From an archaeon (GTDB lineage Archaea > SpSt-1190 > DYHY01): DNA of 52,842 nucleotides. This document shows, piece by piece, positions 1,789-49,845 of the stretch (positions within the stretch are counted from its first letter, which is position 1; every line of letters starts with the position of its first letter). The notes under the pieces are model-generated. The model was not told where the DNA came from. It saw only the letters and a program-made list of their open reading frames with translations, and ran no database searches. The stretch lies in the NCBI GenBank assembly GCA_037442745.1, contig JBBIPP010000007.1, positions 1 through 52,842 on the forward strand, given 5' to 3'. The translations under genes and the position numbers were made by a program.

Positions 1789-1989
1789 AAAATCGCTGGA
1801 ACCGGTCCGTTGTTCTGCCAAACATTCCGTCATCCGGAAAGACCTCTTTTTTCTTTCCCTCAAGGGATTCTTTTTAGTGAAAAAGAATGGCTTGAGCGCT
1901 GAGGCTGAGCCAATTTCGGCTCCAACCCAATTAATTGGCAAAGTCAAGTCCAGCGCAATGCCAAAACTCAACGAGAAATAAAATGCGCG

Positions 1990-2077
1990 TGGCGCTGAGG
2001 ATGGGATTCGAACCCATGCATCCCGTAAGGGAAACCAGCTTTCCAGACTGGCGCGTTAACCGCTTCGCTACCTCAGC
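1990..2077 (-). tRNA. tRNA-Ser(GGA), CCA encoded
   Basis: Cloverleaf GCTGAGG...CCTCAGCGCCA, anticodon arm CCAGT-CTGGAAA-GCTGG, long variable arm, GGTTCGAATCC T-arm; TTTATAAA about 27 bp upstream. Confidence 0.97.
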
Positions 2078-2157
2078 AGGCTTTCCGGTGAAACTGGCGT
2101 TGCTTTATAAAAAAGAGGTATTTTCTTTTTCTTCCGAACCGCGCCCCTCTCCACAAC

Positions 2158-3219
2158 GTGCTATCAATTGAAGAAAAGCCAAAACCGCCAGAATTAAAAC
2201 CGGGGTTTCCCAAGAACTTGCCAGTGAGCCAAGGACCAGAAGATACGGATTCCATTTTCCTGATACGGATAGGGGAAGTTGCCCTGAAAACAGGCAAGCC
2301 GAGAATAGAGTTCGAGCGCAGGCTATTTTCGAACATTAACAATTTCCTCGAAAACAGGGGGGTCGGCGGACTGGCCTCAAAGGACAGAACTGGCCGGGCA
2401 GTTGCAAGGATTCCCGCGGGAAATGAAAAACTGGCGGAGCGTGTGCTTTCGAAGGTTTTCGGAGTCACTTCCTTTTCCAAAGCTCGTTTGTTTGAGTATT
2501 CCGATCTCACAGATCTCTGCGAAAAGGCGCTATCAATTTCAGAGAGGGAATTTGACTTCTCCCTAGGCAAGTCATTTGCAATAAGGGCAAGAGTTCCTGG
2601 CAAGTCTTCAAGGCAGTTCGACTCTCAGGTTCTTGGAAGGGAGGTTGGGGCGAAAATACTCTCGAAATTCCCTTTTATGGTAGTGGACCTTGACAATCCG
2701 GATATTGAGATTTCAATAGAGGCGAGGGAGGATGGAAGAATCTGCTACCTATTTTCCTCAACAGTTGAGGGAGCTGGTGGCCTGCCCTACGGGAGCGAGG
2801 GGCCTGCTCTAGTTATCCTTGACGGAACGGACGAGTCGGCTCTCGCAGGAATTCTAGCCGCAAAGAGGGGTTGTTCCCTAGATTTCCTCTCATTTTCCGG
2901 GGACGAACTGAGGAACGCCGAATTAATTGGGAAAATAATGGACTTTCTCCCACGGAAAAAAGTTCTCCTGTTCCCGGCGGACTCTATGGACGACGCCCTT
3001 GCCAAATCCGGTGCGCTCGCCCTTGTCCTGGGAAGAACCCGACCACCAGAGACTCGGGAATTTCCCGGTTTTTTGGAAATCGCCCCCCTTGAATTGGTCG
3101 AAAAGTCCGCGCTAGCCGGGCTCAAGGAAAAATATTTCGGGGACTTGCCAGTGAAAATATCAGAGAAAAAGTCCGCCGAAAGCTCCCGGAGGTTCCTCGA
3201 AGTAAAATGGCAAAGCTGA
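2158..3219 (+). CDS. thiI: ThiI-like THUMP-domain protein with degenerate PP-loop (true start perhaps 2218/2224)
   Basis: IRIGEVALKTGKPRIEFERRL, VFGVTSFS, VDLDNPD, GAGGLPYGSEG typical of ThiI; SGGxDS replaced by DGTDES. Confidence 0.8.
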   Translation: MLSIEEKPKPPELKPGFPKNLPVSQGPEDTDSIFLIRIGEVALKTGKPRIEFERRLFSNINNFLENRGVGGLASKDRTGRAVARIPAGNEKLAERVLSKVFGVTSFSKARLFEYSDLTDLCEKALSISEREFDFSLGKSFAIRARVPGKSSRQFDSQVLGREVGAKILSKFPFMVVDLDNPDIEISIEAREDGRICYLFSSTVEGAGGLPYGSEGPALVILDGTDESALAGILAAKRGCSLDFLSFSGDELRNAELIGKIMDFLPRKKVLLFPADSMDDALAKSGALALVLGRTRPPETREFPGFLEIAPLELVEKSALAGLKEKYFGDLPVKISEKKSAESSRRFLEVKWQS

Positions 3220-3482
3220 GCTTATGCGATTCCGAGAGCGCATATCAGGTTCTTCCGGACAATCCTTGCGAATTTTCCCTTTTGAAGAAGAGGAACGCCC
3301 TCGATTCCTTGGGGGCGGTGATTGCCTTGACGCCCTATGTCGCCGTATTGAGAGGCCCCGAAGGTGAGGAGTTCTCAATATATTCCAACGGCAAAATACT
3401 TTTCAGGAAAATCCCCCCTTCTTGGAACGAGGAGAAAATCAAGACCGCAGCCGAGAGGGTCTATTCCGCCCTTGCCGACTGA
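3207..3482 (+). CDS. small conserved protein resembling the C-terminal extension of ThiF/MoeB E1-like proteins
   Basis: Overlaps thiI end; TPYVAVL...FSIYSNGKILF pattern recalled from memory. Confidence 0.5.
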   Translation: MAKLSLCDSESAYQVLPDNPCEFSLLKKRNALDSLGAVIALTPYVAVLRGPEGEEFSIYSNGKILFRKIPPSWNEEKIKTAAERVYSALAD

Positions 3483-3489
3483 CTTTGGC

Positions 3490-3921
3490 TTAACTGCCTT
3501 TGGCCTTTTTCCCCGATGACGACCTTTCCTCAACTTCAACTGTCGGGAAATTCATCGGAAGGGGCAGTGCAACTTCCCTCGCCAGGTTTATTGCGACAAT
3601 CAGGGGGAGCCGAAGTATTGCCTGATGCACCTGCCTAGCTTCGTCTGGGACGAGAACGGTCGTGTTTCCGTTCTTCACAGTCATTTTATCAATGTCCCCA
3701 GAAATGTAGACTTTTCCCTCGACAACAATCTTTCCGACGGACGGCGTATATTCTACGTCAAGCCCCCATTTCATTGAGATGACTTTCTGCCCCCTGATTT
3801 CCTCGAAAACAACTGGACCTGCCCTGCTGTTCGTTGATACTGAGACAGAGCCTCCTGAGAGCTTCTCTTCCTCGTTCACTTTCGCCTCTACTTTCGTTAG
3901 CAACATCCTTGTTATTGCCAT
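3490..3921 (-). CDS. conserved hypothetical archaeal protein (beta-rich)
   Basis: Clean ORF with ATG; TTTTATAAA about 25 bp upstream, shared with the divergent ybaK. Confidence 0.75.
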   Translation of the reverse strand: MAITRMLLTKVEAKVNEEEKLSGGSVSVSTNSRAGPVVFEEIRGQKVISMKWGLDVEYTPSVGKIVVEGKVYISGDIDKMTVKNGNTTVLVPDEARQVHQAILRLPLIVAINLAREVALPLPMNFPTVEVEERSSSGKKAKGS

Positions 3922-3972
3922 TCTCGGGAGAATCCGCCCTGTTTTATAAATGTGTTTGGGAAAATCTTCCCA

Positions 3973-16521: not shown

Positions 16522-16980
16522 ATGTCCCCGCTCTCAAAACCCGAAAGGAAAAAGCGAAAGGGCGCCCAGTACAAGGAGCTTGTGGGTGCCGCTTTGAGGG
16601 AAGTTCTTCTGCCGGGAGAAACGCTATGCGATGTGGATTCGGATTTGGCCAGAGCATTCCTCCCGACAAATGCTTGGTCTGTCGAGGGAGTCAAGCGCCC
16701 GGACTATCTCCTGGTATGCCTCTCCGGAGAGACTACATATGTGACGCCGATTGAGGTGAAATACCATTGTCCGCGGAACGGGAATTCCCAGATAAGACCT
16801 GAGGTGGCAAAGAAAGTTGTCAATGAATACCGCAAATACGGGATTCCTCCGCTGTGCGATTCTAAGAACGTGCAGGTTCTTCCAGGACTCATAATCACGG
16901 AGCGGTATCTCTCCGGAAGATATCCCAAAAGCGCGATGTTCCTTACTGTTGCCGAGGCGCGGACGTACAATAAAAAATGA
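16522..16980 (+). CDS. PD-(D/E)xK nuclease-fold protein
   Basis: KRPDYLLV...PIEVKY motif; TTTATAAA at 16490. Confidence 0.7.
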   Translation: MSPLSKPERKKRKGAQYKELVGAALREVLLPGETLCDVDSDLARAFLPTNAWSVEGVKRPDYLLVCLSGETTYVTPIEVKYHCPRNGNSQIRPEVAKKVVNEYRKYGIPPLCDSKNVQVLPGLIITERYLSGRYPKSAMFLTVAEARTYNKK

Positions 16981-16994
16981 ATCGAGCAGGGGGT

Positions 16995-17314
16995 TTGTGG
17001 TGGGCGGGGCCGTTCAGCCAAGGCTGGACTTCGCTTAAGCTCAGGAATTGGCGACCATCTATTCGATAAAATTATCCGAGCCAAGGCGAGGATTGAGTCA
17101 ATATAAAAGGTCCGTTCGGAGAACGGACAACCCGTCAACGGCACGAGCGTTAGCGAGTGGGGTTGTGGTGGGCCCGGCCGGAATTGCAACAAAACTTTAT
17201 GAAAGTTTTATCAAAGAGTCCGTTGCCGGGCAACGGACGGGTTTTCTTTACGCCCGTCAACGGAGTTTTCTTTTTCAAAAGAAAAATGAGTTGTGGTGGG
17301 CCCGGCCGGAATTG
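16995..17314. repeat. three-copy array of the tRNA-Val 3' end with hairpin spacers
   Basis: GTTGTGGTGGGCCCGGCCGGAATTG exact at 17162-17186 and 17290-17314; degenerate, interrupted copy at 16995-17056. Confidence 0.85.
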
Positions 17315-17368
17315 AACCGGCGACCTTCGCAGTGTCAGTGCGACATCATACCACTAGACAACGAGCCC
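17294..17368 (-). tRNA. tRNA-Val(GAC), CCA encoded
   Basis: GGGCTCG...CGGGCCCACCA; anticodon arm TCGCA-CTGACAC-TGCGA. Confidence 0.97.
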
Positions 17369-17404
17369 GCACAGGGGAATATGCCTTTCAGGGGTTTAAA
17401 AAAA

Positions 17405-17836
17405 CTATTGTTTAAGCTTTTTTTCAAGAAGGAACCAGGTAAAGTGGAACTTGCCATCAGGAAGCTCTCCTACCTTCTCAAAGCCCATTTTCCCATAGAA
17501 TCCGAGATTTCCGTGCCTCTCAGATGTCGAGAGTTCAATTTTGTGGCAGTCTAATTCAAGGGCTCTCTTTTCAACGCCCTCTAAAATCGTTTTTCCTATT
17601 CCCCTTCCTCTCGCGCTCCTAGACACCAGGAGATCTTTCAGGTGGCAGACTCCTCCTGTGAAAGAATAATCCGCATAGCCAATTGGTTTTTTTCCTTCAA
17701 ATGCCACCAGAGTCTCTTTCTTGACTGAATATCTATATCCCTTTTCCTTGTTGAATTTTAGCCACTCTCTCCTTGCCCATAAATCTAGAGAATTGTCCTT
17801 TTTGGAAAGCCGTCTGATTGAGATCTTCTTTTCCAT
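17405..17836 (-). CDS. GNAT acetyltransferase
   Basis: LLVSRSARGRGIG acetyl-CoA motif, FYGKMGF. Confidence 0.92.
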   Translation of the reverse strand: MEKKISIRRLSKKDNSLDLWARREWLKFNKEKGYRYSVKKETLVAFEGKKPIGYADYSFTGGVCHLKDLLVSRSARGRGIGKTILEGVEKRALELDCHKIELSTSERHGNLGFYGKMGFEKVGELPDGKFHFTWFLLEKKLKQ

Positions 17837-17893
17837 TATGGTACTTTTCAGAGCAAGGCGTGTTAATAAGTTTTAAAGCAAAAATTTCAGAAT

Positions 17894-18093
17894 CGCGAGT
17901 CCCGAAAATAAAACCGCGCCTCGGGACAATTAACTTTATGGCCCGGTGGTTGAGCCCACAGGCGAAATCCCGGGACCGCGAGTCCCGAAAATAAAACCGC
18001 GCCTCGGGACAATTAACTTTATGGCCCGGTGGTTGAGCCCACAGGCGAAATCCCGGGACCGCGAGTCCCGAAAATAAAACCGCGCCTCGGGAC
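17894..18093. repeat. 83-bp tandem repeat (2.4 copies) in the tRNA-Arg(TCT) trailer
   Basis: Exact units start at 17894, 17977 and 18060; full units contain GGCCCGGTGGTTGAGCCCAC, similar to the tRNA 3' arm. Confidence 0.95.
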
Positions 18094-18096
18094 GAG

Positions 18097-18171
18097 CGGG
18101 CCCGGTGGGATTTGAACCCACGACCTACTGCTTAGAAGGCAGTCGCTCTATCCAATCTGAGCTACGGGCCC
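18097..18171 (-). tRNA. tRNA-Arg(TCT), no encoded CCA
   Basis: GGGCCCG...CGGGCCCG; anticodon arm ACTGC-CTTCTAA-GCAGT. Confidence 0.97.
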
Positions 18172-18278
18172 TTTTCGGCGAATGTCCTGTGAAAATTCCC
18201 GGTTTATAAAAAAGCCTCCTTTATTCGCTCCTTTCTACTCAAAACCTTTTTAACTACTTGAAATAAAGTAAATCCGCT

Positions 18279-20531
18279 ATGGTGGCAAAGGTCTTTTCCC
18301 ATATGAAATTAGTGGTAATTCTGGCGTTCGTTCTCTCGGCAGTCATTTTCCTTCCGGCATTTTCATCGACCCTATCGTGCTCTACTGCGTGCTCGGCCGA
18401 AAGCCTCTGCGAATGCACTGTTACTCCATGCGACTCTGGTCTATTAGTTGTCACGAACGGCTCGGCCGAAAGACAGCCAATAGGCGCCTTTTCCGTCCTG
18501 AACGGAAAAGTCTCTTTCTATTCACCTTCAAAAGGGACTTATTATGCCCAGGCCAGGTGCGGAGATGACCTCTCAAACGTTCTCCAGATAGAGGCCGGGG
18601 ATAAACCCCCAATCCATACCTGCACCTGTACGGATTATGCTAATATTGGGTGCGGAATGTCCTCCTGCCCGACGGATCAGATGCTCCGGGAGCGAACATG
18701 CACTCCTTCAGGATGCGACACCCAGTCGACCTGCGCATATTCATCTCTTTGCATAGGCGGAACAACTAGCACTGTTACTACAATTCCCTATAACTGGACA
18801 ACTCCCCAGGCCTGTGGCGACAAAATATGCTCGTCCGGAGAGAATTATTTGAACTGCTGTACCGACTGCGCCGGTTGCGAAAGGAGCTCTTGCTCCGCAT
18901 CAACTAGGATTTGCTCGGCGAAATACGACCTAATAATAGAAATGCCATCGACAATTTACAAGAGCTCCCAGTTTCTCCTGTCGACAAAGTCAGTTATCGA
19001 CCGCTCGACTAACAAGCCGGTAGACGCATATACCCTCTGCTGGCAGGCATATTGCGAAGGGAACCTAGCGGATGTCCTCGGATGCAACAAAAACGTCTTT
19101 TCAATCAAGCCCGAGGCCAAGTGCGTTGACACCTTGACCGGGCTTCTCTCAGTCTCCGGAACTCTCTATCAATACGATTATTCCGTGAAATACCTGACCC
19201 AGCTGAAAATCTCTTCAGCAGTATTCCCTTCTGAGTATGTCCTAAAGGCCGGAGATTCACTCTCTGCGTTCTCGCTCTCCCTCACTAACCTCGGGTCCGA
19301 GGCGGTTGAGCTGAAAGTCAAGTCTCTTTCCCAAGGGGTAACGATAAATTCTACGAAGTCAGAGCTGACTTTTTCGATCCCTGCCGGAGCGACCGAGAAA
19401 CTCGATTTGCATGCCCCTGCTGTTGCGGGCGAGTATTCCGTCTCAATAGGAGATTCGGCAGGCTCAGGCGAAGTCCAGACACAGAAACTAAAAGTCGTCT
19501 CCGAAGCGTTCTCAACCGGAGCGGTTCCCGAGCTTGTTCTTTCAAGGAACCCGCCCTATTCAATAGAGCCAGGAGGCTCCTTTGAGCTTGTCGCAACTGT
19601 CAAGAACGGAGGGAATTCTCCCGGAGGGTTTTCCCTCTATGCAAAGGGTTCTGCCGCTTCCGCTGTTTCTTTCTCAGAGTCCCAAATGACTCTCGCAGCC
19701 GGGGAGGAAAAAGGGGTATCGCTCAAGATTTCCCCGACATTCTCCTCCGACGGGCAGTACAGCTTGTCAATTTGCGCATCCTCAGACAGCGGAACGGAGA
19801 AATGCATCCCAGGAACGCTTGAGATAACCCAGGCGACAGGAGGGCTCTTTGACTTTACACTCTCCCGGGAAAGTGTTGAGATGGGGGTTGAAGATTCCCC
19901 TGTGGAAGTCGGAGTGAACGTTGTCTCGCGTTCGACCATGACAAGAAGCGTGCGAATGCTTTTCGAGAGCAGCTGTCCTGTCGGCGTAATAACCGAGGGA
20001 TCGTTCCTCAACTCTTCGATTATATCCCTTGAGAGCGGTTCCTACTCGAACGCGTTCAAGGTGAATTCACTCGGAAAGACGGTGTCCTGCACCCTTGCCT
20101 TGACACTCTCTGACAATTCTGGAAGCGTAAAGAAAATGCTCGAGGTCTCAATAGCTCCCTCCGCATCAGATGTCACAAAAGTGGCGGATATTGCGAGCGG
20201 AGCCCAGACAAAAATAAGCCAGGCAGAGTCGGAACTGAAGAAGATTACTTCTGCCGGAAAGGACGGCAGTGCGGTCGAATCCGCAGTGGCGAGTGCTAGG
20301 AACGCCCTTTCAGCGTGCATGGCTGAACTGAACAAGAGGAAATACGACTCTGCGGACGTTCTCTGCAAGAATGCTCTTGATTCGGCTAACGGAGCTCTTG
20401 CTGTCGCAAGATATACTGAAGAGGCATACGGTCTTGAGCCTCCGGCTGGGAACCTCAACACATACGTAATTGCGGGCGTTGTAGTTGTCCTAGTGGGCGC
20501 GGCAATGCTGACTTTTGGAAGAATTGTCTAG
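18279..20531 (+). CDS. secreted membrane-anchored surface protein (Cys-rich N-terminus, Ig-like beta domains, helical stalk, C-terminal TM)
   Basis: Signal peptide, CGDKICSSGENYLNCCTDC motif, ATVKNGG-type Ig repeats, hydrophobic C-terminus. Confidence 0.8.
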   Translation: MVAKVFSHMKLVVILAFVLSAVIFLPAFSSTLSCSTACSAESLCECTVTPCDSGLLVVTNGSAERQPIGAFSVLNGKVSFYSPSKGTYYAQARCGDDLSNVLQIEAGDKPPIHTCTCTDYANIGCGMSSCPTDQMLRERTCTPSGCDTQSTCAYSSLCIGGTTSTVTTIPYNWTTPQACGDKICSSGENYLNCCTDCAGCERSSCSASTRICSAKYDLIIEMPSTIYKSSQFLLSTKSVIDRSTNKPVDAYTLCWQAYCEGNLADVLGCNKNVFSIKPEAKCVDTLTGLLSVSGTLYQYDYSVKYLTQLKISSAVFPSEYVLKAGDSLSAFSLSLTNLGSEAVELKVKSLSQGVTINSTKSELTFSIPAGATEKLDLHAPAVAGEYSVSIGDSAGSGEVQTQKLKVVSEAFSTGAVPELVLSRNPPYSIEPGGSFELVATVKNGGNSPGGFSLYAKGSAASAVSFSESQMTLAAGEEKGVSLKISPTFSSDGQYSLSICASSDSGTEKCIPGTLEITQATGGLFDFTLSRESVEMGVEDSPVEVGVNVVSRSTMTRSVRMLFESSCPVGVITEGSFLNSSIISLESGSYSNAFKVNSLGKTVSCTLALTLSDNSGSVKKMLEVSIAPSASDVTKVADIASGAQTKISQAESELKKITSAGKDGSAVESAVASARNALSACMAELNKRKYDSADVLCKNALDSANGALAVARYTEEAYGLEPPAGNLNTYVIAGVVVVLVGAAMLTFGRIV

Positions 20532-20549
20532 CTGGGGGAGAGCTGACAT

Positions 20550-21314: not shown

Positions 21315-21325
21315 GCCTCCTCTTC

Positions 21326-30384: not shown

Positions 30385-30506
30385 TAGCGGAATCGGGGTG
30401 CATTTCCGGGCTTTTAAGGGTTTGTTTTGGGAAATTGTGCATTGCTAAAAAGCAAGTTGTTGGAGATTGAAACTGGAGGAATGCCCCCCAATTTTCCTAG
30501 TCCAAG

Positions 30507-31784: not shown

Positions 31785-31853
31785 TTCAAAGAAATCCTCC
31801 TTATGTTCAAAGACAGTTAACTATTTAGGAGAGGAACTGCCTGTTTAAAAAAT

Positions 31854-33191: not shown

Positions 33192-33365
33192 ACGAGACCA
33201 CAGGTGGATTCTCCCCATATAGTCAAACTCTTCCACGAACCCCCTATTGGCGTTCCAGAGGACGCCAAAAACAATAGGGACTTTTCCATCTAGTCTTAAG
33301 GTAACCCAGACACCCCTCGATGTCCGTCCAAAGGAAGGACTAGGAAGAAGCAGTTTCCGTCCTCC

Positions 33366-33599
33366 TTACACAATATCTCTGACAGCTCTCTGCGTTTTCC
33401 CCGCTTGAACTTGCTTGGAACTTCGTTTCAACTCAGCCGCACTATACAATTGCCCGAACAGAGTTCTGCGCTCCGCAGGCGTTGGCACGAAACCAAAGGG
33501 CGCTGGTCGCCCCTTTAGTTCTACGTTACTCCAAATTCCCCGACAGACAGATTCTCTTATACAATTGCCCGAACAGAGTTCTGCGCTCCGCAGGCGTTG
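33366..33599. repeat. three copies of the aIF-2beta 3' end
   Basis: 42-bp exact repeat at 33443-33484 and 33558-33599; diverged copy at 33366-33407. Confidence 0.9.
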
Positions 33600-33982
33600 C
33601 ATTTCATAAGGGTAATTCTGTCCTCCTTTATGAGAAATGTCTCGTGCCTCCCGCATGCAGGGCAGAAGACGAACTCCTTTACATATTCCATTATTCTTTG
33701 GTTGACCAAGGAATACCCTAGCTTGCCCTTGAGAACAAGCCTTGTGCCCTCGACCGCTCCCGGCGTTCCAAGTTCCCGGTTAAGGTATTTAAGGAGGTGT
33801 TCCGGCTTTCTCTGGAGAATGTCGCAAATTTCCAGATAGTTCCGTATCAACGTTTTCGAGCCTTCGACAATTACGTCCGCCTTTGGCACAACGAAGAGTA
33901 TTTCCGTTCCAGTGGTTTTCGGAAGGAGGCTTTTCGCCCTCTTTAGCATTTCCTCATAAGAGTAGAATTCCTTTCCAGCCAT
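33557..33982 (-). CDS. eif2b: translation initiation factor aIF-2 beta
   Basis: YEEMLKRA, RELGTPG, CPACGRHET...CNACGA Zn ribbon. Confidence 0.96.
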   Translation of the reverse strand: MAGKEFYSYEEMLKRAKSLLPKTTGTEILFVVPKADVIVEGSKTLIRNYLEICDILQRKPEHLLKYLNRELGTPGAVEGTRLVLKGKLGYSLVNQRIMEYVKEFVFCPACGRHETFLIKEDRITLMKCNACGAQNSVRAIV

Positions 33983-34015
33983 CTCTTATGGAAGGGCGCT
34001 CTTCCGATTTATAAA

Positions 34016-34867
34016 TCAAACCAACCGCTTGAATTTTCCGCTTCTCGGCTCGAATATCTCCCCTTCAGAGATTAGCTCCTTTATTGCCGGATCCGCCTCT
34101 CCAGCTGAAAGGGAGGTTTCCCGAAGAATTGCCGAATAGTCAATTCCTTGGCTCCCCGACTTTTCAATTACGCCGAGTATTGCCGCCTTTAGGTTCGGGT
34201 TCGCTTTCGGCACAGCCTCTTCCTCTTCAGCAGAATCTTCCATTGCCCGCTGTCCGGATTCGGTGGTTTGGGTTGCCGGATTGTCCGAGAGAAGGATTGC
34301 TTCCACTGCCGATTTCGAGAACCCGTACTTGTTCGAGAGGAAATCAATCAGTTTCTGGGGCTCGTCGAATTCCGCCGAGTTCTCAGCAACAAGGCCCTTC
34401 AATTTGGCAAGCTTCCTGTTGCTCTTTTCAATCTCGAGCCTTCTCAAAAGTTCCCTTTGGGTGTCTGACGGAATTATTGTTTCCGGGGCAATATAGAGCT
34501 CGTCTTTGTATTTCCGAAGACGGCCGATTATATTGACAATTGAGCCAATCTTCAGGTCCTGAAGTGGCTTTATCTCCCCCTTGAAAGCCTTTAGGCGTAT
34601 TGTCTCAGTTCCGTCGTCAATTGTGACTGCCCCGTAATTCCCGTCCTCCGAGAAATAGGCTGAAACAACTGCTCCAATAACGTTTATTCTCGATATTTTC
34701 TCGCCGTTTGGAGTTACAATATAGTCTGGCTCCCATTTTCCGGTATGCTGGAAATACTTCCCAGAAAGAACGCTCTTAATGTTGGCCTTTACCGCAACAA
34801 GGCGTGGCTGAATTGGCCTGTTTTCGCCTTCAGGAGAGTTTCCAGTTCCTTTGAAATCTGCCTGCAT
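34016..34867 (-). CDS. rpa: replication protein A (RPA32-like, OB fold + C-terminal winged helix)
   Basis: RINVIGAVV, IDDGTETIR, GEIFEPRSG. Confidence 0.88.
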   Translation of the reverse strand: MQADFKGTGNSPEGENRPIQPRLVAVKANIKSVLSGKYFQHTGKWEPDYIVTPNGEKISRINVIGAVVSAYFSEDGNYGAVTIDDGTETIRLKAFKGEIKPLQDLKIGSIVNIIGRLRKYKDELYIAPETIIPSDTQRELLRRLEIEKSNRKLAKLKGLVAENSAEFDEPQKLIDFLSNKYGFSKSAVEAILLSDNPATQTTESGQRAMEDSAEEEEAVPKANPNLKAAILGVIEKSGSQGIDYSAILRETSLSAGEADPAIKELISEGEIFEPRSGKFKRLV

Positions 34868-34915
34868 TGCCGAAAAGTCCTCCGGCGCTTTATATCTGTT
34901 TTGTGGGCGTTTCCG

Positions 34916-37630
34916 CTATTTTCTCCTGTCAACCAGTATGAAGAACACCCCTGCCAAGGCGACAATTGCCCCGATTTCCGCAACGCCGATTCCCGGAGCG
35001 GACAAGAACTGGCCTGCAGAGGAAACTTCGGACTCGACTTTAATCTCTGCCGATGCCGCGTTCAGCGCGCACTGGTCGGAATTCACCCCTTCCCTTGCTC
35101 CTCCGGAGAATTCCGTCGAGGATGCTGAGATCAAAAGGGAATATTTCCCTATTGCGGCCGCCCGGAACTGGACAGGGACTTCCTTTCGTCCGTTCCTAGG
35201 GACGTTCACGACAAAGGTTTTCTTCCCGTCAAGGAAGGATGCAAAGGGCGCTCCGGAAGCATACGTCCCGGAATCAACTATTTTCAATTTGTATGTAGCG
35301 TCCTTTCCAATGGGGTCTGCGACAACAACCTTCATTATTTTCATGTTCCCGAGCTTTGTTGTTATCTGCTGGGGAGCGATGGAAACGAAGCAGTTCGAGG
35401 CGCATATGTGCGCAGTCCTCGAGCAGTATGTGTTCGCGGTGCAGTCGTTGTCGGTTTCGCAGAAATTGCCCCTTTTCGCCATGCAGATTCCGAAAAAGCA
35501 TTCGTCGTCAGTGCATTGGCAGTATGTGTTGGCATCCGTGCACTCTATTGTCGAGTTGCAGAAATCGTTGTCCAACCCGGCGCAGACAGGGTCAGGCACC
35601 CAGTTGTCCGAGTTCCCGGTCGTGTCGCAGGCAGTGCACACCCCTACTTCGAGAGCAGTTCCGTCAAGTGTAGTGTTCGCGCAGTAATAGGGCGGGTCTG
35701 AACCTAGGTGGTCGCAGTTGTCGGAGCAACAGTCCGGGTCGCAGCCAATGCAGTGGGAGGATTGGCATATTCCGTCCTGCGTTGTCGAGCAGGCGAGGCA
35801 TTGGTTCACTCCCCATGGGTTAGTCAGGGGATCGATTGTCGCGTTCGCGCAGAAATGGCACCCGGTGCAGTCATTGTCAGTGAGGCAGCCGATTGGAACA
35901 GTTGTCGTAGTTCCTCCGACAATTGTTGTCGGGGGCTCTACAATGCATATAGGGCTTGCGAATCCGGTGCATTCGCAGAAACCTTCGTCGCAATCAGGCG
36001 GGAGGCAATCAGTGCAGTATCTTCTGCCTTCCCAAGTTGGGGAGCCACAACACCCTGTCGTGCAGTCGGAATCCCTGACGCAGTCGGCTCCGTTGTTGCT
36101 TATCGCGCCTCCAAGAGCAATTCCAGAGAAGCTCGTATAGTTTGAGCCAATTACAATACCTCCTGTAGGAGTGAGCGCCTTTTGGAGGAGGACTCCGGGG
36201 AGTTCTGTCGTGTTCTTCCAGTTGTTCCCTGTGCAGGTGTTGCTCCCAATGAAGAACTGATGGTCGCACTTGTAGAGGTCGAGGGAATCTAAGAACTTTT
36301 CCTTGTTTCCTTCAACCATCGGGTTCGGTACCTGGTCGTTCGTGTAAATCATCGTGATGTTATAGTAGAGGAACCTCAATGGAGCTGTCGGGTTCTGTCC
36401 AGAGAGTTTCACGTTCGTCTGGTCGATTTTGACATCAATTGCCTCTATTGCGGAGGCGTTCCTCTGCTCCGAGAGAGTCTTTGTTATTCCGTTTGGAGAG
36501 TCTTCCCTTGGGTCCTGGGGAATTTTTGGGACATAGAATTTCGTGAAATTGGCAATTGTCTGCCTAGGATAGTTCTCAATTATGACTTCTCCGAACGACA
36601 TCTCAATCATTCCTCCGGAAACGGAGACAACGAAGTCCTTTGGGACTCTGGTGCAAGACGTGTCCTGCTCAAAAGTCGTGTATTCCTCAGTTGCTGTATA
36701 GCTCTTGGAATATGCTAGTTCCCCTGTCGGGAGATATGCCTTAAATTCAACGTTCCGACCTGTCATTGACGTGAAGTTCGCCGTGTTTGTTGGCTCTGGA
36801 AAGAAGATTCCCCTGAAAGTGTACGGGCAGTACTGGCAAAAGCCGGCTTTTCCGAGCTCGGTTTTCGAGCAGGAAGATGTGCACGTTCCTGAATTTGCGC
36901 AATTGTGTTGATACGCCCTCGGGTTGGTTGAGGAATAGATGCACTCAATTGCCGGGTTCAGGGGGGAAATTGCTGACTGCTCTCCAGCGTTCGCTGACGG
37001 GTTCAATGCTGTGCATTCGGAGGTGTCAAAGCAGTGGTTTTCCCGGCACATGCCGGAACAGCACATTTGGCCGGGGGAATTGCAAAGGTTTGGTGTTGAA
37101 TTGTCCTTGGAGCCGTCCTCCATGTTTACATAATTGCATGAGGTTCCGGTGCATTTGCTTTCGGCAACAACCGGCCAAACCTTGCAGACTGGTGGGTTGT
37201 TGCAATTGACTGGAGTCCCTCCACAACAGACCTTTGTCGCTACATCGTTCCAAAGATAGGGAGAATCGTTGTCGGGAAGCCCGTTTGGCTTGTTTCCGTA
37301 TGGGCAATTTCCGGATGAGCAAGTAGCAGTCTCGGACTTGCAAGCAACTCCAGGATCGTTGCAGGCAACCCCAGCGCACGGATTAGGTTCGCTCTCTTCT
37401 TCGTCATCATCCTCACCGCAGTACTCGCACTGGCAACAACCGTCATCCTCTTCACAACACCGACAACCCCCTCCGGCATAGCATGCCACGGGCTGGCAAC
37501 AGGAGCCTACGCAGTTGCAGAGATAAGAAAAACCCGGCTGCGCCAGCAATTCGACTGCGAACACTGTCGCTACTGCCAAAATCAACATAATTGCAAATAA
37601 TCTTCTTCCAGCGTCCATTTTATTCTGCAC
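34916..37630 (-). CDS. large Cys-rich secreted surface protein with PGF-CTERM-like anchor
   Basis: Signal peptide, repeated CxxDxDC modules, Thr linker, C-terminal APGI-TM-RRK. Confidence 0.82.
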   Translation of the reverse strand: MQNKMDAGRRLFAIMLILAVATVFAVELLAQPGFSYLCNCVGSCCQPVACYAGGGCRCCEEDDGCCQCEYCGEDDDEEESEPNPCAGVACNDPGVACKSETATCSSGNCPYGNKPNGLPDNDSPYLWNDVATKVCCGGTPVNCNNPPVCKVWPVVAESKCTGTSCNYVNMEDGSKDNSTPNLCNSPGQMCCSGMCRENHCFDTSECTALNPSANAGEQSAISPLNPAIECIYSSTNPRAYQHNCANSGTCTSSCSKTELGKAGFCQYCPYTFRGIFFPEPTNTANFTSMTGRNVEFKAYLPTGELAYSKSYTATEEYTTFEQDTSCTRVPKDFVVSVSGGMIEMSFGEVIIENYPRQTIANFTKFYVPKIPQDPREDSPNGITKTLSEQRNASAIEAIDVKIDQTNVKLSGQNPTAPLRFLYYNITMIYTNDQVPNPMVEGNKEKFLDSLDLYKCDHQFFIGSNTCTGNNWKNTTELPGVLLQKALTPTGGIVIGSNYTSFSGIALGGAISNNGADCVRDSDCTTGCCGSPTWEGRRYCTDCLPPDCDEGFCECTGFASPICIVEPPTTIVGGTTTTVPIGCLTDNDCTGCHFCANATIDPLTNPWGVNQCLACSTTQDGICQSSHCIGCDPDCCSDNCDHLGSDPPYYCANTTLDGTALEVGVCTACDTTGNSDNWVPDPVCAGLDNDFCNSTIECTDANTYCQCTDDECFFGICMAKRGNFCETDNDCTANTYCSRTAHICASNCFVSIAPQQITTKLGNMKIMKVVVADPIGKDATYKLKIVDSGTYASGAPFASFLDGKKTFVVNVPRNGRKEVPVQFRAAAIGKYSLLISASSTEFSGGAREGVNSDQCALNAASAEIKVESEVSSAGQFLSAPGIGVAEIGAIVALAGVFFILVDRRK

Positions 37631-38579: not shown

Positions 38580-38725
38580 GGGTTCGCTGTATTTCGTCAA
38601 CCCGGAAAAGCCGGATTTCCTTTCAGCGCGAACCCTTACGGGGTTCGCTGTATTTCGTCAACCCGGAAAAGCCGGATTTCCTTTCAGCGCGAACCCTTAC
38701 GGGGTTCGCTGTATTTCGTCAACCC
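38580..38725. repeat. 61-bp tandem repeat containing the mcm 3' end
   Basis: 24-bp GGGTTCGCTGTATTTCGTCAACCC at 38580, 38641 and 38702, separated by identical 37-bp inserts. Confidence 0.95.
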
Positions 38726-40727
38726 TCGGGGAATAGATTGTCCCGTCCCTTAGAAGAGCGTCAATTAATTTTTGGCAATCCTCCTCAGTCAGGCCCTTTG
38801 ATACTGCCCTTTCAATCAGGAGCTTTTTCTTGAAAGGCTTCCCTCCGGATTCCTTTTCAAGCTCCTTCAAGGAATCTGTTATTATGTTGATTTTCCCCCT
38901 TTTTGCGGCAGTTGTTCCGCCTTCTAGCCGTGCAATGTCAAGTTTCCCGGTTTCAGGGTCAAAGCCAACCTGGTAAAGGCAGAACTTCATAAGGTCAATT
39001 GCCTTTCTCGCATCTTCGGCAGTCACGGCGTGCGAGAACCTTAGCCTTGCATTCCCTTCCGAGAGCCGGACAATTGCCTCAAGCTGTCTTGCCGTTATCG
39101 GGATTGCCTGGAGCTCGTCTGACGACCCCCCGTGCTTTGTCCGAAGGCCGACATAAAAGTTTTTTATCTCATCGACCGCCTCGGTCGTGAGTTTCGGCGA
39201 GGGGAAGTTTTTCTTCGTATATGCAATGTATTTCCGGAGGACATCTGTCTCAATTGGTGCAATGTTTTTCCTGTTCGGCTGCTTGTGGAGGAGGAGTATG
39301 TGGTCGGCGAGACTTTCGTCCTTTTCCCTGTCAGGGACGTCCCTAAGAATGAACGTCAGGTCGAACCTTGAAAGAAGTGTCTGGGGCATTTCAATCTGCT
39401 CCATAATGTCTTTCCGGGGGTCGAACCTCGAAAGCTTTGGGTTTGCCGCGGCGAGAATCGATGTCTCTGCTCTAAGGTTGGCGTGGATGTTCGCTTTGGC
39501 AATTGAGACTGACCCCTGTTCCATTACCTCGTGCATTGCGACCCTGTCTTCAGGCGCCATCTTGTCCATCTCGTCAATTGCGCACAAGCCCTTGTTGCAG
39601 AGGACAACTGCTCCAGCCTCAAGAGCCCAGCCCCCAAGGAATTCGTCCCTCACAACAACTGCAGTGAGGCCAGCCCCCGTTGCCCCCTTGCCGGATACGT
39701 ACATTGATTTCGGGGAAAGCATGCTGACATAGCGGAGTAGTTGGGATTTCCCGCTCCCGGGGTCACCGACAAGGAAAATGTGTATCTCTCCCCTTGTTTT
39801 CATCCCGTCGCTCCTGATTTTTGTCACTCCCCCGAACAATTGGAGGGCGACAGCCTCCTTTATTTTCTCGTTCCCGTAAATCGAGGGGGCGATTGAGAGG
39901 ATTATTTTCTCCTTTATTTTCGGGTCCTTGCTCATCTCGACAATTGTCTCCTCTTCCTCCTTTGTCAATTCGAGCTTTTCGAATTCCTGGACAGAATTTT
40001 CAACATATATTGCCTGGAGATAGACATCGAAAATCTTCGACTTTACTCCAGTCCTCAAAGTAACCGGCTTTTCCTTCATTACCCCGACAATTTTCACCCG
40101 GTTCCCGGGAGTGAGCCTTTCTCTCAAGGTAGGTTCAACCAAATCATCCTGAAGAATTGCGTCAATTCTCGAGGGCTGCTCACCTCCAGTCAATCTCTCT
40201 GGAGCCTCCTCTATTTTCAGGCTCTGGAGGTCCCGGAACGTCTTGTCCCCTTCCTTGAAAATTGATTTACCGCAGATGCATTTCGCGGGCTTTCTTATCA
40301 CCTGCGTTGTCTGGAGAATTGTCATCTTGTTCCCGCAATCTAGGCACTCAAAGACAACTTCCATAACTTCCGGTCTGACTTCTGAAGCCTGCCTAATTAG
40401 TCCCTCGACTTCCACTATTTTCCCGAGATGTTTTGTCCGGAGATCCTTGATTTTGACGAATTTGGATTCTGGGAGAGTGTGCACCCGGACGAAAATCTTG
40501 TCCGCTGTCGGAAGTGGCTGTGAGGAGATTACCGCCTCCATCTCCTCAATTATCTCAAGGGGACGCTCAAGGAGCTCGTCAGCCAGAAGCGGGTCATGGC
40601 GGTCTAAGTCGTTGAAATCAAGAAAGAAGCTCTTTCCGCCCTTGCTTACGGTTTCGACAAGCTTCTTGTAATAGTCAGTTGTCGCCAGGAACTCGGCGAA
40701 CTTTTGCGAAACCTCGGATAACTCCAC
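38697..40727 (-). CDS. mcm: MCM replicative helicase (no intein), GTG start
   Basis: Zn finger CLDC...CIC, GDPGSGKS, IDEMDKM, AAANP, SRFD. Confidence 0.98.
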   Translation of the reverse strand: MELSEVSQKFAEFLATTDYYKKLVETVSKGGKSFFLDFNDLDRHDPLLADELLERPLEIIEEMEAVISSQPLPTADKIFVRVHTLPESKFVKIKDLRTKHLGKIVEVEGLIRQASEVRPEVMEVVFECLDCGNKMTILQTTQVIRKPAKCICGKSIFKEGDKTFRDLQSLKIEEAPERLTGGEQPSRIDAILQDDLVEPTLRERLTPGNRVKIVGVMKEKPVTLRTGVKSKIFDVYLQAIYVENSVQEFEKLELTKEEEETIVEMSKDPKIKEKIILSIAPSIYGNEKIKEAVALQLFGGVTKIRSDGMKTRGEIHIFLVGDPGSGKSQLLRYVSMLSPKSMYVSGKGATGAGLTAVVVRDEFLGGWALEAGAVVLCNKGLCAIDEMDKMAPEDRVAMHEVMEQGSVSIAKANIHANLRAETSILAAANPKLSRFDPRKDIMEQIEMPQTLLSRFDLTFILRDVPDREKDESLADHILLLHKQPNRKNIAPIETDVLRKYIAYTKKNFPSPKLTTEAVDEIKNFYVGLRTKHGGSSDELQAIPITARQLEAIVRLSEGNARLRFSHAVTAEDARKAIDLMKFCLYQVGFDPETGKLDIARLEGGTTAAKRGKINIITDSLKELEKESGGKPFKKKLLIERAVSKGLTEEDCQKLIDALLRDGTIYSPRVDEIQRTP

Positions 40728-48039: not shown

Positions 48040-48846
48040 TCAATTTGCCAATTCCTTCAAAAGCACCCTATGGTCGAACGCAATTTTCTTTGGCAGTTTG
48101 TTTTTCGGGAAGAACCCAAGCTCAGTTGTCTCTTCCTTCTGGAGAGTCGGCTTTCCACCAACGATTTTCCCCGAGAATACTGCAGTGACGCAGTTCGCCC
48201 CCGGATACCTCTTTCCAGAAACTATTCTCAGGAATTTCCCTATTTTTACCTTAAACCCAGTCTCCTCAAAGACTTCCCTTTTTGCCGCTTCCTCAAGAGT
48301 CTCCCCAGAATTAACATGCCCGCCGGGAAGGCACCAGAAACCCCGGTATTGGCCGTGCGCCCGTTTTTCCATTAGGACCTCTCCTTTTTCGTTCTCAATA
48401 ACAACGTCAACCGAAACAAGCGCCCACCCCTCCCTTGCCTTTCCAATGAATCCGTCAACAATCCTCTTCCTGTGGTCGAACGCAATTTTTTCCGGCAGAC
48501 TTTCCTTTGCAAACCACCTGATTTCGTCAACTTCTTCCTTCTGGAGCCTTTTCTTCCCTCCGACAATTTCAGCGAAATAGGAAAGCGCGGCAACCTCCCC
48601 CCCGCTTCCATTGAAAAGAACTCCTGAATAGACTCCAACCAGTTTCCCTATTTTTACCTTAAACCCAGTCTCCTCAAAGACCTCCCTTTTCAGGCCCTCT
48701 TCAATTGTCTCTCCCTTGACAAGTTGCCCGCCGGGAAGGCACCAGTATCCTTTCCATTTCCCGGAATGCCTTTTTTCAAGTAGAATTTTCCCATTCTTGA
48801 TAATTATTGCATCAGCGTTCGCAAACATCCTTTTCTCTGGAGCCAT
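48040..48846 (-). CDS. tandem two-domain NUDIX hydrolase
   Basis: Two GGx5Ex7REVFEETG NUDIX boxes, each domain ending IAFDHR. Confidence 0.93.
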   Translation of the reverse strand: MAPEKRMFANADAIIIKNGKILLEKRHSGKWKGYWCLPGGQLVKGETIEEGLKREVFEETGFKVKIGKLVGVYSGVLFNGSGGEVAALSYFAEIVGGKKRLQKEEVDEIRWFAKESLPEKIAFDHRKRIVDGFIGKAREGWALVSVDVVIENEKGEVLMEKRAHGQYRGFWCLPGGHVNSGETLEEAAKREVFEETGFKVKIGKFLRIVSGKRYPGANCVTAVFSGKIVGGKPTLQKEETTELGFFPKNKLPKKIAFDHRVLLKELAN

Positions 48847-49585
48847 TTGTTTCCAAGAAAAGCCACGATTCTCAAATTAAAGCGTTTCCCTTTACGGAAA
48901 AATGGGATTTCCTCTTTCAAGCTTCCAATGCCTTTTTATATGCAGAAGCTATTTTGTCACCAATCGAATAGACAGCTTCCTCCGAGAATGCAAGTCTCCA
49001 GTCCCTCGTCTTTCTAGGACAGGCGTTCAACAAGTAATTACCTTTCCTTCTTCCGTTGCGAGGCCGAGAATCAAGCAGTTGCCGAAGAAAAAAGCAAGGT
49101 GTTTCGATTTCCCGAAGCTGTCCGATCTTCTGATGTGAGTTCCTCTTCCGGAAATTCCAGAAACTTCCTTTCCGGCAAACTCCGAATAAACAGTCAGGTC
49201 AAGAATCCTCCTTTGGAAGATAGAATTCCAAAAGTTAGGCTCTTGACTTCCTCTTTCAAATCCCAAAATTTTCCGCGTATTTCGACAAGCTCTGTTTTAG
49301 GCCCAAGAGTCAAAGCAACAGTTCCTGCCCAAAAGAGAAAATAGTCTGGTTAATTTCCCTGTCGGATTTCGGCAGAGCCTAACCATTTCAGGACGTCGCT
49401 TGCGCTCAGGAACCAACAACCAGTATCCTTTCTTATTCCAGTCAATTGATCCTCCGGGGAGGATTGGTTGGAGCGGGGACCCGGAGGCCGAGCCTCCTGC
49501 GAGGTCTGGAGCAAAGGAGCGGAAGACTGAAGCGTTCTGCAATTGGCCGAAGTCTCTGGGTAAGCGAGAATCAGTAACTGGCGAG

Positions 49586-49660
49586 CGGACCCGGAGGGAT
49601 TTGAACCCCCGACCTAATGGTTCGAAGCCATTCGCTCTATCCGGGCTAAGCTACGGGTCC
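49586..49660 (-). tRNA. tRNA-Arg(TCG), no encoded CCA
   Basis: GGACCCG...CGGGTCCG; anticodon arm AATGG-CTTCGAA-CCATT. Confidence 0.97.
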
Positions 49661-49684
49661 TCGGGAAATATAGGAAACCTCTGC

Positions 49685-49693
49685 TTTATAAAA
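49685..49693. promoter_or_regulatory. bidirectional TATA box shared by divergent tRNA-Arg genes
   Basis: TTTATAAAA centred about 30 bp from both tRNA 5' ends (49660 and 49720). Confidence 0.65.
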
Positions 49694-49719
49694 AGGAACG
49701 GAAAGTTTTTTCCGGGCAA

Positions 49720-49796
49720 GGGCTTGTAGTATAGCTTGGACAGAATAGGGGCTTCCGAAGCCTCGGACCTGGGTTCGAATCCCAGCAAGCCCGCCA
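49720..49796 (+). tRNA. tRNA-Arg(CCG), CCA encoded
   Basis: GGGCTTG...CAAGCCCGCCA; anticodon arm GGGGC-TTCCGAA-GCCTC. Confidence 0.96.
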
Positions 49797-49845
49797 CAAA
49801 CTTTACGAAAGTTTGACAAAAAAGGGTGTTTGTTGTACACGCCGA
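49797..49845 (+). repeat. dispersed double-hairpin element (also at 30507 and 17191)
   Basis: CAAACTTTACGAAAGTTTGACAAAAAAGGG is 28/30 identical to 30507-30536. Confidence 0.85.

Follow-up and report, generated by a model that had tools for sequence, protein, structure and literature searches.

The window analysed here is the whole stretch of DNA formed by the first 52,842 bases of contig C7 of an archaeal genome, G000. At five of its six tRNA genes and at three protein genes, nmd3, aIF2beta and mcm, the 3′ end of the gene is found again downstream in the same orientation. These second copies are termed echoes. A first-pass annotation had proposed the eight loci, and all of them exist, at the positions it gave or no more than a few bases away. 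Comparison with the rest of the genome and with related genomes shows that the echo pattern is real and genome-wide, and that it represents an unusually dense system of recombination scars.

The genome under study (contig labels C1 to C20 refer to it) comprises 1.14 Mb in 20 contigs and is 94.5% complete; the sequencing runs that bear its sequence are subsurface metagenomes. The closest named relatives of its MCM protein come from metagenome-assembled genomes (MAGs) of Woesearchaeota, Pacearchaeota and Nanoarchaeota, at 44–49% identity, and by this likeness it is a DPANN archaeon near Woesearchaeota and Pacearchaeota. ARAGORN finds 41 tRNA genes; there are 44 matches to RF00005, three of them with anticodon-loop introns. 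The relatives used are G001 (same genus, MCM 84% identical), G003 (another genus of the same family), G004 (another family of the same order) and G002 (same order), all of them 84–92% complete MAGs, which with G000 make up a set of five genomes for the order. The outgroups are G010, from another family of the same class, and the unrelated archaea G019 and G031. A metagenome contig, L046, is 80–90% identical to the window between 12.4 and 26.4 kb over the aligned blocks.

Gene ends and their echoes in the window

The features at the tRNA genes are as follows. Names of hairpin modules, here and below, are our own labels.

1990–2077, minus strand: tRNA-Ser(GGA), intact
1890–1907, minus strand: weak echo of the tRNA-Ser 3′ end (15/18 in a gapped alignment, 9 nt exact), with the T-rich hairpin module after it
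17294–17368, minus strand: tRNA-Val(GAC), intact
17187–17289, minus strand: tRNA-Val insert of 103 nt, with a T-rich terminator-like hairpin module, a GC hairpin and hairpin H
17162–17186, minus strand: tRNA-Val echo, 25 bp and exact, reaching from the T loop to 4 nt beyond CCA
16995–17012, minus strand: older 3′ echo of tRNA-Val (16/18)
18096–18171, minus strand: tRNA-Arg(TCT), intact
17894–18093, minus strand: tandem array of 83-bp units at tRNA-Arg(TCT), 2.4 units, each ending in a 19/23 copy of the T arm and acceptor 3′ part
23001–23075, minus strand: tRNA-Asn(GTT), intact; at 23001–23019 the site is empty, the filled form being that of L046
22933–22943, minus strand: tRNA-Asn 3′ echo, 11 nt and exact, at a distance of 58 nt downstream; also in L046
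49585–49660, minus strand: tRNA-Arg(TCG), intact
49471–49487, minus strand: echo of the tRNA-Arg(TCG) 3′ end (15/17)
49798–49814, minus strand: hairpin H at the 3′ end of tRNA-Arg(CCG) (tRNA at 49720–49796, plus strand), with no echo

The echo of tRNA-Val gives 28/29 matches with one gap, and hairpin H (17192–17208) adjoins it. In Logan contigs, the loop unitig of the tRNA-Arg(TCT) array has about the same depth as its flanks. The weakest of the eight loci is tRNA-Ser; the tRNA-Ser gene of G001 has nearly the same downstream arrangement. Hairpin H lies directly against tRNA-Arg(CCG) in the absence of an echo, and thus the modules occur without the repeat too.

At the protein genes the following are found.

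30851–30867, minus strand: 3′ end of the NMD3-family coding sequence (CDS; 30847–31428), first copy
30492–30524, minus strand: nmd3 echo (30492–30508, 16/17) directly after hairpin H (30508–30524)
33558–33599, minus strand: last 42 bp of the aIF2beta CDS (33557–33982), first copy, to the second base of the stop codon; the stop is TAA
33485–33557, minus strand: aIF2beta insert of 73 nt, a degenerate gene-end copy (18/22) and then an inverted GC-hairpin module
33443–33484, minus strand: exact 42-bp echo of aIF2beta, followed by G, giving a TAG stop
33366–33394, minus strand: older echo of aIF2beta (20/29 nt)
38580–38725, minus strand: tandem repeat of 61 bp at mcm, 2.4 units, overlapping the last codons and stop of the CDS (38697–40727)

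The identities of aIF2beta and NMD3 are confirmed by Pfam, and MCM is named from its homologues. The inverted GC-hairpin module of the aIF2beta insert is also present after tRNA-Ile. The nmd3 echo lies 342 nt beyond the first copy and has a score of 14 in the test described below, a level at which one CDS is expected by chance. Because the bare score reaches chance level, the nmd3 case rests on the shared hairpin that adjoins the echo. Thus tRNA-Ser and nmd3 are weak as bare matches, and they are credible because their flanking motifs match those at the stronger loci. It was also proposed that, where there are several distinct copies, the distal one is the most degenerate. This order is seen at tRNA-Val, but it is not strict at aIF2beta, where a degenerate copy stands closer to the gene than the perfect echo.

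It should be noted that the Pfam match of NMD3 covers profile positions 131–242 only, in a 193-aa open reading frame (ORF), and that a 118-aa ORF (31428–31784) abuts it upstream; in this region (window 30847–31784) the gene may be split or its start miscalled. Elsewhere in the window, a CDS at 48040–48846 contains an internal direct repeat with a spacing of 402–408 nt, in which a 162-nt stretch is 72% identical.

Echoes throughout the genome and the order

The last 30 nt of each tRNA gene, together with the next 4 nt, were compared with the downstream 500 nt in ungapped alignments scored +1/−2, and 38 of the 41 tRNA genes were testable. Permuted gene/flank pairs provided the expectation; the upstream 500 nt and the reverse complement served as further controls. 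A 3′ echo with a score of at least 10 is found at 18 of the 38 tRNA genes (1.6 expected), and one with a score of at least 12 at 12 of them (0.42 expected). The inverted control reaches a maximum score of 11 and the upstream control only 8, with no tRNA 3′ fragment upstream of any gene in the 500 nt scanned. The same-sense copies lie 28–144 nt downstream of the gene, and counted rows with a score of at least 11 at 28–129 nt. Among the 18 counted rows, that of tRNA-Pro(TGG) is a match no better than chance, at a distance of 444 nt.

Protein genes were taken from crude in-house ORF calls based on codon usage (1033 genes, 1017 testable). At a score of at least 18, ten of the 1017 have a 3′ echo, as against none in the permuted control and none in the inverted control. 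These ten echoes are 24–43 bp long and lie 14–109 nt downstream. Named by sequence reading, the CDS include a FlaI-like ATPase, thioredoxin reductase, AlaX, thermosome, a Trm5-like methyltransferase and aCPSF1, and further echo CDS read as a small winged-helix protein and a membrane protein. A peptide-level search of G000 for older, recoded echoes yielded only two to three weak candidates beyond the nucleotide set.

The 5′ ends of tRNA genes are copied as well, at six of 41 tRNA genes as against 0.1 expected. Here the first 16–37 nt of the gene and 0–6 nt (once 32 nt) of the upstream flank are found again 82–113 nt upstream. No CDS 5′-end echo was detected among 992 genes at a score of at least 18. 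Thus, when set against shuffled controls as the first-pass annotation had proposed, the echoes stand far above both permuted and inverted expectations for tRNA genes and CDS alike. Its description of the phenomenon as one of gene 3′ ends holds for the tRNA and protein genes counted above, but is too narrow in view of the tRNA 5′ echoes.

A census of exact local repeats of at least 13 nt gave 394 in G000 versus 74 in a Markov-simulated genome, most of them inside repetitive CDS. This census disregards exact 55-nt repeats next to N gaps, which are overlaps of the assembler. Eleven such direct repeats were noted (e.g., C7:52943–52997, shortly beyond the end of the window), and they are most likely overlaps left by scaffold joins of a k=55 assembler.

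The counts of tRNA genes with a 3′ echo at a score of at least 10 in other genomes are given below. The genomes of the order are kin, and their counts are not independent of one another.

G001, same genus: 19/28, 1.2 expected
G003, other genus of the same family: 12/28, 1.8 expected
G004, other family of the same order: 12/29 (one is a neighbouring tRNA), 1.9 expected
G010, same class, other family: 1/20, 0.6 expected
G019, unrelated archaeon: 0/18, 0.21 expected
G031, unrelated archaeon: 0/17, 0.0 expected

G002, the fourth relative of the order, has the same layout at one tRNA gene, seen by eye in L066. In the three outgroups, by contrast, echoes are rare or were not found.

Repeat boundaries and recoded copies

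The repeats extend from a tRNA loop, or from 19–44 nt inside a CDS, out to the edge of the gene, and their length varies from 10 to 43 bp. In tRNA genes the inner edge is the first base of the T-stem 3′ strand at nine loci, the T loop at six and position 65 at two. The outer edge lies at −2 to +7 from the discriminator base in 16 of 18 rows, the exceptions being Glu-CTC (at −7) and the chance-level Pro-TGG row. The tRNA 5′ echoes end in the D loop, and once in the anticodon loop. In CDS that do not form tandems, the outer edge is at −8 to 0, counted from where the stop codon ends; at aIF2beta and the FlaI-like gene it falls between the second and third bases of the stop, and the only difference between the two copies is TAA in one and TAG in the other. 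Perfect tandems (2.2–2.7 units) account for seven of 27 loci and diverged tandems for two, and in the remaining 18 the DNA past the echo is unrelated to the insert.

Important are copies that differ in nucleotide sequence and not in the peptide they encode. The aIF2beta gene of G001 ends in ten residues and a stop that its echo, which begins 24 nt beyond, reads as well, with 24/33 bases identical. By hand count, this echo is closer to the gene end of G000 (27/33) than to that of its own genome (24/33). The aIF2beta genes of G000 and G001 are 67–87% identical in 45-nt windows. In G003 an aIF2beta echo lies 18 nt past the stop and agrees in 28/35 bases; its own frame reads the same last eight residues, and a weaker further copy is seen by eye beyond it. 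At the CDS C3:12060 of G000, an identity of 34 bp is followed by 7 nt with three differences, and both copies read K-K-stop. A silent copy made in place cannot keep the peptide while the live copy changes at almost all synonymous sites. For this reason the recoded copies must have diverged as working gene ends in separate lineages and been brought together later. A sliding comparison of aIF2beta identity in G000, G001 and G003 showed no clear import tract; the gene is too short.

If two homeologous gene ends have been joined, the repeats would stop at the gene edges because there the homeologs cease to be alike. Boundaries of this kind argue against the repeats being target duplications set by an enzyme; a length of 10–43 bp, a conserved gene edge as the end point and recoded homeologs do not agree with such duplications. 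They bear on a transposon- or casposon-like origin, in which a family resembling MITEs (miniature transposable elements with inverted repeats) would insert at staggered cuts and the echoes would be true target-site duplications. Direct target repeats do flank inserts that have common end motifs, and repeats of the class that begins at the T-stem 3′ strand measure 13–16 bp, near the 14–15 bp target duplication of casposons, elements that carry a Cas1 casposase and a family B polymerase within them. Long and variable target duplications are also on record: those of IS1630 are 19–26 bp, and restriction-modification units insert with long target duplications (PMC2853133). However, the repeat length here varies even within the class of inserts that ends in one and the same module (17, 19, 25 and 34 bp next to hairpin H), and an outer boundary that follows gene ends and stop codons is beyond the general recognition abilities of a DNA enzyme. 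The recoded echoes and the K-K-stop case would be impossible by duplication in place. Furthermore no terminal inverted repeats are seen by eye in the inserts, no TnpB or Y1 transposase was matched in G000, and Cas1 is confined to the CRISPR locus of that genome. An origin by transposition of this type is thus highly improbable, and the least probable of the origins weighed here.

The inserts and their hairpin modules

The inserts are 15–150 bp long, and once 342 bp; they are non-coding and contain no ORF. At Rfam gathering thresholds they match nothing, and within the window the six tRNAs are the only matches. When 28 inserts were used as blastn-short queries (E up to 0.05), 20 returned only themselves and their own tandem or local copies; the other eight contain modules of 16–53 nt that are common to other loci. 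These figures do not agree with a single element family, as had been suggested; most inserts are unique, assembled from a small set of recurrent hairpin modules. The suggestion that inserts at different loci have motifs in common is borne out by the recurring hairpin modules. Equally upheld is the basic description of small non-coding inserts at gene ends that leave the gene undisrupted and form mini-arrays.

Four modules recur. A T-rich hairpin and a second small palindrome occur directly after tRNA ends or 5′ fragments. A GC hairpin lies between an AACC-type start and an AGTTCT-type end, and is also found in L046 and G002. A TCCGTG...CACGGA hairpin is present at eight intergenic loci; in three 5′ echoes it immediately follows the D-loop break, and in one 3′ echo the T-loop break. 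Hairpin H has 13 matches, none within a CDS call, and it adjoins the repeat at tRNA-Val, at nmd3, at the C3 CDS, at tRNA-Asn of L046 and at the 5′ echo of a tRNA-Ala.

A further feature of the spacers is an inverted copy of the same tRNA 3′ end, trailer included, found in 11 of 52 units from four genomes as against 1.8 expected. The layout is direct, inverted, direct, with the inverted copy 8–122 nt from the echo. The 15-nt insert at the thermosome gene likewise opens with the reverse complement of the repeat start.

Such arrangements might be selected structures. An echo and an inverted spacer copy might form a hairpin selected for pre-tRNA or mRNA 3′ processing, termination or protection, and selection would then account for how frequent it is. 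The two can indeed pair, and T-rich hairpin modules follow many tRNA ends. However, orthologous tRNA genes of G000, G001 and L046 have wholly different inserts, and by eye the stretch that would pair with the tRNA-Asn echo has changed in L046 without compensation. Distal echoes decay, no insert matches Rfam, and the predicted folds are inconsistent between loci. A selected RNA or DNA structure is therefore a very improbable explanation of the echoes.

Other RNA-level candidates were also set aside. Folding of echo units as tRNA-like minihelices gave inconsistent results, with acceptor-like pairing in only some units; the pairing partner of the echo is the inverted copy of the 3′ end with its trailer, and not a copy of the 5′ strand. 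No C/D-box small RNA was recognised, as no boxes are seen by eye. Introns in the T or D loop, or split tRNAs, were dropped as the main source of the fragments, since introns are found in the anticodon loop only and an intact tRNA gene, scored by RF00005, stands beside every fragment. A complementary stretch like that of split tRNAs is seen, by eye, only at tRNA-Gly(GCC), and there is no sign of the fragments being spliced.

Filled and empty sites, turnover and assembly

Filled and empty forms of the same site were expected in relatives, and both have been found. At tRNA-Asn, L046 has 155 nt more than the window, made up of a 136-nt insert ending in hairpin H and a 19-bp repeat; the older 11-nt echo is common to both. 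Thus the repeat is single-copy in a genome that is otherwise collinear and free of the insert, the window being the empty form and L046 the filled one. Downstream of mcm, G001 has none of the 61-bp repeats; its protein has the same nine C-terminal residues, and the DNA past the gene cannot be aligned. The tRNA-Val site of L046 keeps the first echo and the left junction, while the DNA between tRNA and echo is unrelated, and L046 has an extra 51-nt unit that resembles a unit at tRNA-Val of G001.

Independent (Logan) assemblies of two samples, one of which may be the source sample, are identical to the window from 16900 to 36899 with no indels. In the same two samples the unitig of the aIF2beta insert has a depth of 5.9 versus 13–14 in its flanks, and 5.4 versus 9.7–10.6, which gives ratios of 0.42–0.55 as per-contig Logan figures and not from reads. 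The half depth is a hint of polymorphism and not a measurement. Depth is the sole possible trace of an empty aIF2beta allele, because the 42-bp repeat exceeds the assembly word length. Assembly artefact was considered as a source of the echoes and rejected: they are shorter than the 55-nt overlaps, lie inside single contigs in two samples, and recur in five further assemblies.

Some irregularities of the assemblies should be recorded in their own right. Contigs often start or end no more than about 100–170 nt from a tRNA gene (in G000, C4:13–97, C15:13–97 and C18:99–174; also in G001, G003, G004 and G010). Such breaks are expected if tRNA flanks vary between strains. Within a CDS of 750 aa, window positions 18642–18788 form a short Logan unitig with a depth of 9.7 versus 14–16 (run X1), a hint of a strain variant. 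Intergenic stretches of C1 are 100% identical to stretches of C6 (region 74942–87910), and C1 looks like a redundant duplicate of a part of C6. A family of 90–290-nt repeats, 86–98% identical and mostly at contig ends, probably breaks the assembly (C3:1–323, C14:15750–16522, C14:20656–22517, C16:1–1731, C20:3417–3827, C8:71680–72012, C13:1–181 and C12:59200–59377).

The compactness of the units bears on an alternative raised in the first-pass annotation, that of collapsed island scars, in which elements of kilobase size would have been trimmed by deletion to 15–150 bp in a streamlined genome. The repeats resemble attL and attR, recoded ends would be accounted for, the genome is small at 1.14 Mb, and an integrase-bearing island does lie directly downstream of tRNA-Cys in G000. 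However, the spacing is 14–144 nt at nearly all loci, all repeat partners of tRNA ends lie within about 160 nt, and no partner on the kilobase scale was found: a genome-wide search for distant same-contig partners of any tRNA end (up to two mismatches in 20 nt) gave only real tRNA genes. The youngest events, namely the identical 42- and 43-bp repeats and the gain in L046, are already only 59–136 nt in size, and inserts at different targets have the same short two-ended architecture. Collapse of former islands is thus improbable as the general origin.

An orphan 3′ fragment of tRNA-Leu(TAA) was observed at about C3:12479–12498 on the minus strand (up to two mismatches in 20 nt), with no tRNA gene adjoining it. 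The echo locus of the C3:12060 CDS is about 130 nt away.

Recombinases and other enzymes

The first-pass annotation had assumed mobilisation in trans, but no enzyme that was sought tracks the pattern; tyrosine recombinase and Cas1 were found only in G000. In this genome a single full tyrosine integrase is encoded immediately downstream of tRNA-Cys, and there is also a fragment. The full protein has 426 aa, a Phage_integrase domain and a weak zinc-ribbon match below the cut-off, and the ORFs that follow it resemble DNA methyltransferase or restriction genes; this is likely an integrated element (C12:40791 to about 52000). No convincing right-hand repeat of the tRNA-Cys island was found, the best candidate having two mismatches in 14 nt at a distance of 11 kb. 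A link between the island and the small inserts was rejected, as no such repeat was found and the left end of the island is without the shared modules. PF00589 is thus matched in one of the five genomes of the order. It has no match in G001 to G004, yet it is matched in 14 of 14 control genomes, and the order may lack XerA-type recombinases. The G000 integrase itself has a match in G019, a genome without echoes, and none in G001 to G004.

Among the five genomes Cas1 occurs only in G000, inside a CRISPR locus (C3:96817–102349) that contains a 1239-aa protein, which we take to be Cas12a-like from its N-terminal motif, followed by Cas4-, Cas1- (Pfam match) and Cas2-like ORFs. CRISPR arrays at the ends of C3 and C9, split by the assembly, have 36-nt repeats with a spacing of 62–65 nt. 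Off-target integration by this Cas1 was rejected, since the echo repeats are 10–43 nt and the inserts 15–144 nt long, compared with repeats of 36 nt, and Cas1 was not found in the four relatives. Non-homologous end joining was likewise discarded, as Ku was not found in any of the five genomes. A serine recombinase gave one match only in this set, below the curated cut-off, in G002; in G000 a search for reverse transcriptase gave one match below the cut-off.

An integrase might nevertheless act from elsewhere. The units could be miniature integrative elements, attP-like cassettes that a recombinase moves in trans from an unbinned virus or plasmid or as an unrecognised host enzyme, and the echoes would then correspond to attR. 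Their geometry is that of tRNA integrases, from the T loop to past the 3′ end, with the gene restored and newer units next to it. A gene end borne by the element would explain the recoded ends of protein genes, recurrent modules adjoin the repeats, and breaks of contigs at tRNA genes are expected where variable elements reside. Published analogues exist: partial tRNAs flank integrative elements, with newer elements pushing older ones outward (bioRxiv 10.1101/2020.12.28.424599), and in Caldiarchaeum a 5′ tRNA fragment adjoins an element that has integrated (Sugahara et al. 2012, PMC3293823). On the other hand no insert contains an ORF, and neither the single genome with PF00589 nor the match of its integrase in echo-less G019 follows the distribution of the echoes. 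Circles of 47–150 bp are poor substrates for recombination. One module family at many targets, each with its own copy of the target, is hard to obtain by site-specific recombination, and inverted copies 8–122 nt from the echo do not have the layout of a core site. Miniature integrative elements are on balance rather unlikely, but the recurrent loop positions and the modules that adjoin the repeats make a site-specific enzyme acting in trans a strong rival to the origin set out below.

Possible origin of the echoes

We lean, tentatively, to an origin in which local duplication and template switching make the units, and host homologous recombination adds, spreads and removes them. The echoes would then quite possibly be products of recombination and not classical transposon insertions. 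Gene termini would be the hot spots in this order, at either end for tRNA genes and at the 3′ end for some conserved protein genes. A short segment (the 15–150 bp, once 342 bp, of the inserts) would be placed next to an intact gene, accompanied by another copy of that gene's end; the gene itself would be kept whole, and its former end would move outward and decay. The direct repeats would be blocks of homology between the resident gene end and a sister or foreign (homeologous) copy.

The units may arise by local tandem duplication and by strand or template switching at DNA that forms hairpins, such as tRNA loops and the flanking modules; switching of this kind would also leave inverted copies. 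This first step is suggested by the existence of perfect tandems and of inverted copies. A unit of gene end, insert and gene end would next carry its own homology arms, a long one in the gene and a short one in the echo. Homologous recombination could then add the unit to naive genomes, amplify it or delete it. Such a step fits the boundaries at gene edges, the recoded copies and the bias to highly conserved targets, and also arrays that grow next to the gene and the composite insert at aIF2beta. We infer that the units originate by template switching, and that homologous recombination, using the echo for its short arm, brings about their spread, addition and loss.

Several points weigh against this proposal. 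Many different tRNAs have their inner boundary at the same loop positions, and the same modules, hairpin H for example, adjoin the repeat at unrelated targets; recurrent positions and abutting modules look like the work of a site-specific enzyme with defined ends. Because the inserts at 18 of 27 loci are unlike the flank past the echo, they are beyond the reach of local duplication by itself and import of foreign DNA must be assumed, and recombination on arms of 10–45 bp is assumed for these organisms. The lack of integrases that would favour host recombination is weak evidence, given unbinned viruses and plasmids and MAGs of 84–94% completeness, and the depth ratio at aIF2beta is of the per-contig kind described above.

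A broader form of the idea is possible, if doubtful, namely that an order in which tyrosine recombinase was found only in the one island of G000 is colonised by miniature gene-end cassettes, non-coding units with a copy, and in many cases an inverted copy too, of a tRNA or conserved protein-gene end. These would spread either by host homologous recombination, with no enzyme of their own, or by an undescribed enzyme acting on folded hairpins, and build arrays at about half of the tRNA genes. If this were true, the cassettes would represent a new mode of DNA mobility and a natural example of how arrays nucleate from gene ends.

Should the units move or turn over in the way that the comparisons suggest, they would record recombination and DNA exchange in uncultured DPANN archaea densely and in a form that is easy to score. 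Gene termini would be replaced by homeologous copies without any recognisable mobile-element gene. The echoes also bear on how tRNA genes become fragmented, split or intron-bearing, and gene-end arrays apparently made without Cas1 are relevant to the origin of repeat-insert arrays. In annotation they are a hazard, in the form of tRNA fragments, pseudo C-termini and assembly breaks at tRNA genes.

Comparison with known systems

The closest likeness is to integrative elements that use tRNA genes and gene ends, such as SSV1, pNOB8 and the tycheposons of Prochlorococcus, where integration gives back a whole gene and leaves part of the target end duplicated beside the insert; protein genes serve as targets too, as with phage 21/e14, which integrates at icd. 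In such elements, the repeat also runs from a tRNA loop to past the gene end, older copies are pushed outward, and the incoming copy may differ from the resident one. However, these elements are kilobases long and encode an integrase, whereas the inserts described here, a hundred times too small for this, are 15–150 bp (once 342 bp), free of genes, and present at about half of the tRNA genes. A tyrosine recombinase in one of the five genomes, 5′ tRNA ends as targets, and inverted copies in spacers are further differences.

Insertions of restriction-modification units (PMC2853133) are alike in having variable direct repeats, single-copy in the empty genome, no recognised mobility gene and, in some cases, repeats that overlap gene 3′ ends. 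The authors propose a cycle of invasion, amplification via the repeats and release. There the insertions are kilobase-sized with a restriction-modification cargo, and the repeats range from more than 30 bp to hundreds of bp; the inserts here are non-coding and concentrated on tRNA genes. No archaeal case survived the screen in that study.

Fragmented, disrupted and split tRNAs of archaea (PMC3293823; van der Gulik et al. 2023, PMC9897764) offer another parallel. Fragments, 5′ or 3′, occur beside intact tRNA genes, and break points lie in loops that are also known as intron positions. There, however, the fragments are kilobases to hundreds of kilobases away, and not 28–144 nt from the intact gene, and in contrast to intron-bearing tRNAs with introns in other positions, the tRNA introns of G000 are found only in the anticodon loop.

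Integration by Cas1, of casposons or in CRISPR arrays, resembles the present case in its short insert, long target duplication, array-like succession of repeats and inserts, and tRNA 3′ targets. Unlike the products of Cas1, the echoes and inserts are not constant in length, and Cas1 occurs only in the Cas12a-like locus of G000. Unlike MITEs and other derivatives of insertion sequences, the inserts form no family of near-identical copies and the repeat length is not fixed.

Copies of tRNA ends at element borders, serial integration, a 5′ fragment beside an element and long variable target duplications are thus already known. No account of dense mini-echoes in DPANN archaea was found in the literature, where the supplements of PMC2853133 and of the tycheposon report may list small or non-coding cases. 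What appears to be new, judged from the genomes compared, is the combination of non-coding inserts of 15–150 bp with duplicated gene ends and no detectable recombinase, distributed across an entire order at about half of the tRNA genes and at the ends of conserved protein genes as well.

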